From contig JAGVWJ010000017.1 of the NCBI GenBank assembly GCA_018304385.1, positions 1 through 46,109 on the forward strand: a stretch of 46,109 bases of DNA, read 5' to 3'. The position numbers were made by a program, and so were the translations under genes. Origin of the DNA: Candidatus Micrarchaeota archaeon. Its GTDB lineage: Archaea; Micrarchaeota; Micrarchaeia; Anstonellales; Bilamarchaeaceae. The notes below the pieces were generated by a model that saw only the letters and a program-made list of their open reading frames with translations, made no database searches and was not told the origin of the DNA. Shown piece by piece: positions 26,165 through 28,159 of the stretch (position 1 is its first letter; the number at the start of each line of letters is the position of its first letter).

Positions 26165-26392
26165 ATGAATGAAATTAGAAAACAAAAACCAACAGCATTA
26201 GATATAACTATGATGCGTACTTTTGAAGCAGAAACAGCTAGGTTACGAACTGATGTGTCAAAAATGCGCCCTGGGTTAGCAAGAAGCCTTTTAGCGCAGG
26301 AATTAGATTTAAGAGAAAGAAGATTAAGACAATGGAAAGAAAATCCAAGTGGTCGGCCAGAAGAACCGTTTAAAAGTGTTACTGGTTATTAA
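26165..26392 (+). CDS. Small hypothetical protein
   Basis: 75-aa ORF with an upstream AT-rich promoter-like sequence. Confidence 0.55.
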   Translation: MNEIRKQKPTALDITMMRTFEAETARLRTDVSKMRPGLARSLLAQELDLRERRLRQWKENPSGRPEEPFKSVTGY

Positions 26393-26405
26393 ATATTTTT
26401 TATTT

Positions 26406-26678
26406 GCCCCTGTGGCTCAGTAGCCTAGCCCTTTTATAATCTAATATTTATCTAATGTAAAAAGGGCTAAGGCCTCACCCCAAAACAGAACTTTCTTGTT
26501 TGGGAGCTCGACCTTTTTGACATTAGGAATACATAAGTGTTGAAAAGGTCGAAATGAGCAATGGTAGAGCGTGCGATTGGTAGCTTTTTGTAAGAATAGC
26601 TTGAATTATCTGTTTTGGTCAAGCTTTCTCTAAAAGCTTGAAATCGCAAGGTCGCGAGTTCAATTCTCGCCGGGGGCT
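26406..26678 (+). tRNA. tRNA-Thr(GGU) interrupted by two introns (D-loop ~15/16 and canonical 37/38)
   Basis: Exons 26406-26420, 26562-26582 and 26643-26678 give a 72-nt cloverleaf: acceptor GCCCCTG/CGGGGGC, D arm GCTC-AGTGGTA-GAGC, anticodon arm TGCGA-TTGGTAA-TCGCA, T arm GCGAG-TTCAATT-CTCGC, discriminator U. Confidence 0.88.
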
Positions 26679-26701
26679 TCATTTTTATTTTCAGTTTTTG
26701 T

Positions 26702-28159
26702 TTAATTAGGATAGCACAATCCATCTGTTGCTAAGTAGTAATCTGATGGGCAGGTGGATGTATAATACTCTGACTCAGAATAACAATAACCATCAACACC
26801 TAGGTAATAACCAGGATTACAAGTTAAACACTCTCCGTTGTAACACCAGTTATTTTCACCAACACAATAAGTACCGCTCCCGCATTCTGGGTGGCATTGT
26901 TTATCCGTGCCATAAACATATCCTGCTGGACAATTTGGGTTAGATGGCTTATTAGGAGACTCATAACATCCACCTTGGCTACAATACGTTCCTTTTGAGC
27001 AATAGAAAAATGATCCTTGAGTGTCATCATAATAACATGATTTTACGCATTCAAAATCTTCTGACAAAACCTCACCGGTCTTACAATTAATGCATTGATT
27101 CTGAATTGGTACTGTATTCTCTGCTTCGCAATAATTAGCAGTAGCCGCCATATCTTTAAGCTCACGAGAATCTATTGCGTATCCTATTCCTTCAGTACCG
27201 ACATATTTCCATGTATTTATTCCTAATAACTTCCCTTTTTCTTTATCAAATAATCCACCACCACTATTACCTGGATTTATAGCCGTGTCTGTCTGAACCA
27301 CAGGAATTTGAGAAGTTGGTTCTTTACCTATATTAGAAACAATGCCTCTTGTAACTGTCCAAAGAGAACCACCACTAGGATTTCCTATCGCGTATACTTC
27401 ATCACCGCTCTTTGGAACATGGTCTCTATCTACAATAGCGTCTTTCGATTTATCCCCTGGATTCTTTTTGAATATTAAAAATGCAATATCAACGTCATCC
27501 TTGGCATAATAAACATTTGTAGGGTTATACCTAAAACCATCAGTTGTTTCAATGGTAATTACCTGATTAGCTCCGAATGTGCAGATCCCAGTATATAAAC
27601 AATCTACAACGTGCCTATTTGTAACAACAACTTTTTCATCAGCAGAAAGACTATTATTAGGAACATCAGTAGAAGGAATGATTACACCTGAACCTACAAG
27701 GTTATAAGGAATTTTTTGGCCTATGTCATTACAACAGGTTTCACCATCTAACTGTATATAAACAACGGTTTTTTTCAGATCTTCAACATTTGTTGTTGCA
27801 TCTTTACAATCAACTGAACAGCTGCTAGTGCTCTCACCGTTTTCGCATAGATTATTGCCACAACAAGGAGTAATAATATCATTTTTGCAAATGTAATTAG
27901 TTTCAGATCCACAATAATCTTTTGTGCAAAGATTATTATCATTACACGAGTCTGGGCATTTTTTCTCATCGCTATCGCAGATGTCATTATTGTTAGTATC
28001 TAAACAGCAAGATGTTCCTACCAGTATATATGGTTTGTTACACACTGGTTGAGTTGCATTCTGACTCTGACCAGTCAAATTACTAGGAATCGTACATCCT
28101 GATATAAAGATGATTACAATTAATATAACTCCTAATAAAAGATTTTCTTTAAATTGCAT
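26702..28159 (-). CDS. Secreted trypsin-like (HtrA-type) serine protease with Cys-rich flanking domains
   Basis: FISGC signal; triad TNRHVV, DVDIA, INPGNSGGGL; no PDZ domain seen; Cys-rich C-terminus. Confidence 0.92.
   Translation of the reverse strand: MQFKENLLLGVILIVIIFISGCTIPSNLTGQSQNATQPVCNKPYILVGTSCCLDTNNNDICDSDEKKCPDSCNDNNLCTKDYCGSETNYICKNDIITPCCGNNLCENGESTSSCSVDCKDATTNVEDLKKTVVYIQLDGETCCNDIGQKIPYNLVGSGVIIPSTDVPNNSLSADEKVVVTNRHVVDCLYTGICTFGANQVITIETTDGFRYNPTNVYYAKDDVDIAFLIFKKNPGDKSKDAIVDRDHVPKSGDEVYAIGNPSGGSLWTVTRGIVSNIGKEPTSQIPVVQTDTAINPGNSGGGLFDKEKGKLLGINTWKYVGTEGIGYAIDSRELKDMAATANYCEAENTVPIQNQCINCKTGEVLSEDFECVKSCYYDDTQGSFFYCSKGTYCSQGGCYESPNKPSNPNCPAGYVYGTDKQCHPECGSGTYCVGENNWCYNGECLTCNPGYYLGVDGYCYSESEYYTSTCPSDYYLATDGLCYPN

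Follow-up and report, generated by a model that had tools for sequence, protein, structure and literature searches.

tRNA genes with non-canonical introns, occurring together with an epsilon2 endonuclease, are a known feature of Micrarchaeota. In Candidatus Micrarchaeum acidiphilum ARMAN-2, 56% of the tRNA genes are disrupted, and the introns that were tested, of 13 and 25 nt, lie at positions 37/38 and 59/60 (PMC3239211). The epsilon2 endonuclease of this organism cuts both strict and relaxed motifs in vitro, and the relaxed HBh'/BHL-like class is cut by epsilon2 as well as by (alpha-beta)2 enzymes (PMC3239211). An intron in the D-loop of a threonine tRNA is known from Aeropyrum pernix, where the pre-tRNA-Thr2(UGU) intron, termed a canonical bulge-helix-bulge (BHB) intron, is cleaved in vitro by the (alpha-beta)2 EndA (PMC3241643). 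Protein-spliced tRNA introns have been described as 'less than 100 nt' (PMC4033280), a length exceeded by the 141-nt intron reported here. The mechanism by which archaeal tRNA introns originate is termed unknown in reviews (PMC4090602, PMC4033280), and a 2026 study of Asgard archaea found no route of intron origin (bioRxiv 10.64898/2026.10.13.758758).

Here, we analysed a threonine tRNA gene located in a window of 46,109 nt, which is contig C62 of an archaeal assembly of 1.53 Mb in 65 contigs that is 89% complete (G000). A first-pass annotation had described at this locus a tRNA-Thr(GGU) gene with a 141-nt insert in the D-loop and a canonical intron of 60 nt. All of these elements were recovered at their coordinates, and ARAGORN recognised the tRNA once the exons were joined. 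The gene and its flanking candidate signals are as follows:

26369 to 26376, forward strand: candidate archaeal TATA-like box (TTTAAAAG), read by eye, with the mature 5' end about 37 nt further downstream
26406 to 26678, forward strand: whole tRNA-Thr(GGU) gene, 273 nt long, with introns making up 201 nt (74%) and its product spliced in silico
26406 to 26420, forward strand: exon 1, tRNA positions 1-15, with acceptor GCCCCTG, U8, G9, D-stem GCTC, A14 and G15
26562 to 26582, forward strand: exon 2, positions 16-37, with TGGTA, the D-stem 3' strand GAGC, G26, the anticodon-stem 5' strand, U33, GGU and A37
26643 to 26678, forward strand: exon 3, positions 38-73, with the anticodon-stem 3' strand, the variable loop, the T-arm with TTCAATT and the acceptor 3' strand
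26682 to 26691, forward strand: T-rich tract after the discriminator, candidate archaeal terminator, read by eye

Between an ORF that ends at 26392 and a peptidase gene whose 3' end is at 26702, the gene takes up the entire gap. Its discriminator is a U, and CCA is not encoded. When the three exons were joined in silico by their coordinates, ARAGORN returned a perfect tRNA-Thr(ggt) of 72 nt in which all stems are paired: a 7-bp acceptor stem, a 4-bp D-stem, a 5-bp anticodon stem and a 5-bp T-stem, with a 7-nt anticodon loop that contains U33 and has GGU at positions 34-36. The bases involved in tertiary contacts are all kept (U8, A14, G18G19, A21, G53, T54-psi55-C56, A58 and C61), and the joined D-arm is identical to that of the uninterrupted orthologues in G036 and G025. 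It had been suspected that standard scanners may miss the gene, and on the raw sequence ARAGORN, with intron mode on and off, and Rfam both did. With only the D-loop insert removed, ARAGORN placed the second intron at 31/32 (26572-26648) and read CTTGAAA, at the end of the intron, as an anticodon loop (tga); the tail sequence is probably what misled the program here. Contigs of several metagenome runs carry identical DNA, and the insert is therefore not an assembly artefact. The genes nearby are archaeal (topoisomerase VI B, a GHMP kinase of the mevalonate type, an M54 peptidase and DUF2666), and the adjacent PCMT gene has its closest named relative in a Candidatus Micrarchaeota groundwater MAG, with 73% identity.

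The D-loop insert, intron 1, is composed of the following parts, listed with the exon strand that its tail is predicted to pair with:

26415 to 26418, forward strand: exon strand of the predicted central splice helix, GCTC, which doubles as the mature D-stem 5' strand
26421 to 26561, forward strand: intron 1, 141 nt, at D-loop position 15/16, member of a three-hairpin family (covariance model R1, 141 bits, E 2e-32)
26423 to 26473, forward strand: hairpin 1 (module M1), stem 26426-26435/26460-26469, with a GCC/GGC extension near the 5' splice site
26479 to 26504, forward strand: hairpin 2 (module M2, CCCAAA...TTTGGG), stem 26479-26484/26499-26504, the most conserved part of the family alignment
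26508 to 26552, forward strand: hairpin 3 (module M3), 17-bp stem 26508-26524/26536-26552 with an 11-nt loop; the core first claimed was 26508-26517/26543-26552; identity to the Gly(GCC) copy at G000:C63:9397-9458 is about 90%
26556 to 26561, forward strand: intron tail GAGC-AA, the intron strand of the central helix and the first two bases of the 3' bulge

The insert folds at -47.4 kcal/mol (z = -5.67), a value that none of 200 shuffles reached. Folding recovered all three hairpins that had been claimed inside it, with the third extending to 17 bp. In the unconstrained minimum-energy fold of the 273-nt precursor, GAGC (26556-26559) pairs with GCTC (26415-26418) at four of four positions, all Watson-Crick. 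The D-stem 5' strand has as its partner this intron sequence, not its mature partner at 26567-26570, while the acceptor, T and anticodon stems form alongside. The three hairpins radiate as a four-way junction from the inner end of the helix. The BHB-like central helix that the first-pass annotation had proposed, with bulges AG|T and AA|T, is thus seen in a fold on which no constraint was placed. In standard BHB geometry each helix strand is followed by a 3-nt bulge, which is cut after its second base; applied to the GCTC/GAGC helix, this geometry gives cuts at 26420|26421 and 26561|26562, the junction of the mature tRNA. Intron 1 has the 4-bp central helix and both 3-nt bulges in the register of the correct junction. 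The D-loop splice sites had been called uncertain; the ambiguity amounts to 1 nt, owing to the T present at both 26421 and 26562, the product is the same either way, and the 2|1 rule fixes the cuts. The continuous outer and inner helices abutting the bulges in the strict hBHBh' form (3-4-3) are absent from intron 1. Since there is no exon-side helix and hairpin 1 begins 2 bases past the bulge, its motif is of the relaxed, HBh'/BHL-like kind, and both 'bulges' are located in multi-branch loops.

We also searched the introns for RNAs of other kinds. No Rfam family, those of self-splicing group I and group II introns included, was matched at gathering score, permissive E-values giving chance-level matches only, and a match to sR17 (14 bits, E 0.97) was no better than chance. 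A box C/D guide RNA inside an intron is known from the archaeal pre-tRNA-Trp and such guides occur in some archaeal tRNA introns; as a candidate for either intron of the present gene it was rejected, the C box (RUGAUGA) and the D box (CUGA) both being absent from 26421-26561 and 26583-26642. Elsewhere in the genome, a tRNA-Met(CAU) gene (G000:C40:13000-13450, minus strand; L100) holds three inserts, of which the 37/38 intron has TGATGA and CTGA in box C/D order.

The second intron lies at the canonical position:

26583 to 26642, forward strand: intron 2, canonical 37/38 site, 60 nt, with a terminal hairpin (26620-26640) followed by AA

It had been described as a relaxed BHB, which agrees with our folding. 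The central helix would be formed by bases 32-35 (UUGG) with CUUG at 26637-26640, where three of the four positions pair (one G-C and two G-U) and one is mismatched. In the splice-competent fold, a 5-bp inner helix (26584-26588/26632-26636) stands on one side, and on the other the anticodon stem takes the role of outer helix. At minimum energy both helices are extended, and a 3x3 internal loop is favoured in place of the central helix. The orthologue in G002 is 75% identical over 26557-26678, and its intron 2 starts in a closely similar way. The layout of a terminal hairpin followed by AA is also found in the 37/38 introns of Gly(UCC) in G000, Lys in G001 and Thr in G002, and copies of the terminal hairpin cassette are present in G004, G026, G029 and at G000:C20:41773-41804.

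A tRNA with several introns had been expected to need a broad-specificity endonuclease, and the genome does encode a full-length epsilon2 homologue. This ORF of 399 aa, on contig C28, matches PDB 4FZ2 with an E-value of 1.2e-129 (residues 11-399 against 4-387). Its loop residues Tyr160 and Lys161 and its catalytic Tyr236, His251 and Lys282 are aligned with and identical to those of the ARMAN-2 enzyme, for which the residue numbers and roles, including those of the ARMAN-specific loop, have been reported (PMC12397907). An RtcB-type ligase gene is present at the end of contig C51 (PF01139, E 2e-101). A second endonuclease-like ORF, of 161 aa, is found on contig C53 (L092:1468-1950, minus strand). 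It is a relative of alpha-type EndA (E 2e-11 to PDB 1A79 and 2GJW) whose catalytic Tyr and His seem, on inspection by eye, to have been substituted, so that the epsilon2 enzyme may be accompanied by a structural (beta-like) paralogue.

The three-hairpin insert is not confined to the threonine gene. Homologous copies occupy other tRNA genes of the same genome:

C63:9316-9463: copy in Gly(GCC), D-loop
C40:56253-56389, minus strand: copy in Gly(UCC), D-loop
C40:13257-13367, minus strand: copy in Met(CAU), D-loop
C20:60098-60234: copy in Arg(UCU), 37/38

Further copies of the element sit in T-loops in G001, G002 and G026, and a homologous three-hairpin intron is thus shared across isoacceptors and positions, as in a transposed or shared intron family of the Thermoproteales type. 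Alignment of the paralogues gave a three-hairpin consensus in which 7 of 33 pairs are compensated, and from this alignment we built the covariance model R1 (137 model positions). The model was required, as blastn-short and single-sequence nhmmer retrieved a few paralogues only. It matches about 10 loci in G000 and 29 and 18 in two genomes of the same genus (both strands counted), has a few matches in six other genera of the same family, and did not match any of the 24 genomes that were searched outside the family but within the order. Across 26 copies, in an alignment fitted to the model, 89.9% of the cells are paired and 24 of the 33 pairs show compensatory double-sided changes; a control with slid partners on the same alignment reached at most 67% paired cells and 11 pairs. 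Relatives of hairpin 1 were found at G000:C55:2891-2932, at G000:C24:59613-59710 and in the G017 orthologue. The second of these, on the minus strand, is a partial family copy (hairpin 1 and the start of hairpin 2) that is intergenic and lies immediately 5' of a protein gene. D-loop introns were also sought by pattern in two scans of the whole genome; the matches were too noisy for a count, and only individual cases were taken from them.

While the body of the intron is common to the family, its last six bases vary with the host site. The pairs of host strand and intron tail are:

Host GCTC, tail GAGC: Thr(GGU) of G000; Lys in G001; Thr in G004 and G008
Host GCTC, tail GAGT: Met of G000; Thr in G017
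Host ACTC, tail GAGT: Thr(UGU)
Host GTCT, tail GGAT or GGAC: both Gly genes of G000; Gly of G002
Host CTTC, tail GAGG: Arg(UCU) at 37/38, in the anticodon loop
Host TTCA, tail TGAA: T-loop copy (G026)
Host GTTC, tail GAAC: T-loop copies (G002, G004)

There are exceptions: the D-loop introns of the G002 and G028 orthologues pair at only three of the four positions, and a 53-nt D-loop intron of Lys (G000, contig C51) is out of register. In most D-loop copies the tail is letter-identical to the D-stem 3' strand of the host, as 26556-26559 is to 26567-26570, and not merely complementary to the 5' strand. These identical tails include G-U variants (GAGT twice, GGAT once), in numbers too small to tell copying from selection. 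The Thr(GGU) orthologue of G004 (L134, G004:C133) has three introns, and one cassette is present both in its D-loop, with the tail GAGC-AA, and in its T-loop, with the tail GAAC-A.

Taken together, our results make it very likely that 26406-26678 is a functional GGU gene of a groundwater Micrarchaeota archaeon, transcribed as a precursor of about 273 nt from which two introns would be spliced by proteins, the body of intron 1 being a modular element that has spread. As we picture the process, the last six bases of intron 1 would imitate the D-stem 3' strand, GAGC forming with GCUC the 4-bp central helix of a relaxed bulge-helix-bulge, and the cut sites would fall within the 3-nt bulges AG|U and AA|U. 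The whole insert would leave in a single step. Intron 2 would present its weak central helix with bases 32-35 between the anticodon stem and the 5-bp inner helix. The epsilon2-type endonuclease would cut all four sites and RtcB would join the exons; after ligation, the true D-stem could form and CCA would be added. The intron body itself would be a copy of the modular three-hairpin element that spread among the tRNA genes of the genus, with its 6-nt tail fitted at each site.

How the element spread is a further question. The three-hairpin body could be a non-autonomous mobile RNA or DNA cassette that seeds new tRNA introns, landing at sites with a 4-nt host strand that it can match, and gaining, or being selected for, a 6-nt tail that creates the splice helix. 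We regard this extension as unlikely on present evidence. The excised RNA, very stable and probably circular, might then be a transposition intermediate, or functional itself. If the cassette reading is true, intron birth, insertion of modules (hairpins 2-3) and replacement at the same site would be ongoing in the genus and could be caught as population polymorphisms.

Single-step removal of intron 1 has to be weighed against nested splicing, in which hairpins 2-3 (about 26474-26554) would be removed first, an AGCCU/AGGCU inner helix would be created and the outer D-loop intron would be cut only afterwards. The arithmetic behind this proposal of the first-pass annotation is right, since deleting 26474-26554 does set AGGC and T beside GAGC. 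Hairpins 2-3 are moreover about 90% identical to the Gly(GCC) copy, whose hairpin 1 differs. In one contig of metagenome run X8, 26468 is joined to 26553 with TC between them (26469-26552 missing). What speaks against nesting is the absence of a splice motif: no 4-bp helix with 3-nt bulges lies at the boundaries of 26474-26554, and the only candidate with four of four pairs that was noticed by eye, GGCC (26471-26474) with GGTC (26547-26550), requires melting of the 17-bp hairpin 3. A scan for 4-bp helices with 3-nt bulges across 26400-26685 was non-discriminating, many chance candidates outscoring the true pair. In five paralogues the three hairpins stay together and share one tail that matches the site, and the excision in the X8 variant is imprecise, rests on 30 matching letters on its shorter side and possibly comes from a relative. 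We therefore consider nested splicing improbable. The part of the proposal that stands is that hairpins 2-3 look, from the sequences compared, like a separable module at the level of DNA, given their identity with the Gly(GCC) copy and the contig that lacks 26469-26552.

The X8 short form implies a D-loop intron of 59 nt, made of hairpin 1 and a TCAAT-GAGC-AA tail, and the full-length form is present in X8 as well. The evidence for the short form is weak, because its depth is 3 and only 30 letters match on the shorter side, with a relative as a possible source. Shorter Thr D-loop introns are known in G004 and G008, where an arm like the 3' arm of hairpin 2 is followed directly by GAGC-AA; the G017 intron is less close and ends in GAGT-AA. 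Since these three introns go from the hairpin-2-like arm straight to the tail, hairpin 3 looks like a later addition. GAGC flanks hairpin 3 on both sides (26504-26507 and 26556-26559), and we considered a target-site duplication. This was rejected, as the GGAGCTCG junction also occurs in the Gly(GCC) copy despite the GGAT tail of that copy; the upstream GAGC is for that reason better taken as part of the module than as a duplication made by insertion. Perhaps it is a relic of an older tail, like those of G004 and G008.

The reading as a functional gene with two protein-spliced introns is also supported by the orthologues and by the need for the tRNA. In related genomes the exons of tRNA-Thr(GGU) are near-constant and the inserts highly variable. 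The 5' exon is identical or near-identical in G002, G004, G005, G007, G008, G017 and G018. The D-loop insert measures 0 nt in G005, G007, G009, G011, G012, G018, G020, G022, G025 and G036, 39 nt in G008, 43 in G028, 51 in G002, 52 in G004, 86 in G017 and 141 in G000, and intron lengths at 37/38 lie between 0 and 161 nt. The anticodon stem changes in a compensatory way across the intron (TGCGA/TCGCA, TACGA/TCGTA, TTCCC/GGGAA, CGTGC/GCACG). A pattern search of the same-genus genome G001 did not find its tRNA-Thr(GGU) orthologue, which a further intron or missing DNA may explain.

A search of the whole G000 assembly for anticodon arms with NGT gave one credible GGT gene, that at 26406-26678; the other threonine genes are Thr(UGU) on C26 and Thr(CGU) on C55. 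ACT and ACC together make up 45% of the Thr codons in long ORFs. Because this is the only credible GGU gene and those codons are so frequent, the gene is probably needed and would have to be spliced. In our judgement the tRNA-Thr(GGU) gene is genuine and probably essential. A pseudogene, that is a tRNA inactivated by the insertion of a repeat, with the ACC and ACU codons served by an undetected second gene, is a very improbable alternative. The insert does belong to a multi-copy repeat family with a partial intergenic copy, and at 89% completeness a second GGU gene could lie on missing DNA. Against this, the exons are all intact with every stem paired, the second tRNA-Thr(GGU) gene for which the first-pass annotation had advised a search was not found in the assembly, and orthologues from five genera or more share the position of the D-loop intron, with exons preserved and tails matched to the site. 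Moreover, almost every tRNA gene of G000 is likewise interrupted, and interruption therefore cannot mean inactivation. That the insert is instead retained, giving a mature tRNA with a giant structured D-loop expansion, is scarcely credible: nothing supports it directly, although three hairpins protruding from a D-loop are conceivable, whereas insert length varies among orthologues from 141 nt down to zero, the same element occurs in anticodon and T-loops, which a retained copy would render non-functional, neither the D-arm nor the G18/G19 contact with the T-loop could form in the unspliced tRNA because the tail displaces the true D-stem strand, and the A. pernix D-loop intron has been experimentally removed (PMC3241643).

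The state of the other tRNA genes was apparent from the genome as a whole. In the 1.53 Mb of G000, just 2 tRNA genes are reported by ARAGORN in intron mode, and no more than 4 exceed the threshold of the Rfam tRNA model. Only 12 intact ends made of a T-arm plus acceptor strand are present, and in 10 of the 12 the matching 5' acceptor strand lies 59-248 nt upstream, against the usual 48. Nearly every tRNA gene of G000 seems to be interrupted.

A probably essential decoding gene can thus be invisible to ARAGORN and to the Rfam tRNA model, and the automatic annotation of such lineages is badly incomplete, since these tools find only a handful of tRNA genes in 1.5 Mb. The locus also offers a handle on intron origin in three respects. 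First, one structured cassette is found at D-loop, anticodon-loop and T-loop sites with its tail rewritten at each. Second, two genomes of the same genus have different introns at the same site. Third, the population may contain a shorter allele, as suggested by one metagenome contig. The spread of such introns can be seen clearly in this gene. No published description was found in the papers searched, which is not proof that none exists.

Among the known systems, ARMAN-2 (PMC3239211, PMC3488258, PMC12397907; PDB 4FZ2, 9W2K) belongs to the same phylum, has the same enzyme type and likewise has several introns outside the canonical position, their bulge-helix-bulge motifs being relaxed. Unlike the ARMAN-2 introns, the D-loop intron of G000 is 141 nt long, strongly structured and made of repeated modules, and hardly any tRNA gene of G000 is recognised by standard finders. 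What sets the variant apart is this length, a body that folds as a four-way junction and belongs to a modular family of structured repeats, and its site-matched tails; as the splice helix abuts the four-way junction, intron 1 would be a demanding natural substrate for RNA recognition by an epsilon2 enzyme. With A. pernix it shares a D-loop intron of the protein-spliced type in a threonine tRNA and the need for a broad-specificity endonuclease, but the phylum and the enzyme architecture differ, and the G000 intron is without an outer helix and has a four-way junction as its interior. The transposed tRNA intron families of Thermoproteales offer another comparison (Fujishima et al. 2010, as summarised in PMC4090602). 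Relative to what that summary describes, the G000 unit differs in being a modular three-hairpin body of conserved structure in which the last 6 nt are exchanged at each site, whose modules recombine and of which a partial copy is intergenic. Finally, the hidden D-loop intervening sequences of Asgard archaea (bioRxiv 10.64898/2026.10.13.758758) are likewise inserts annotated as enlarged D-loops and located at splice-competent motifs; that study reported almost no intron families across isotypes, whereas the G000 family spans at least five isoacceptors in one genome.
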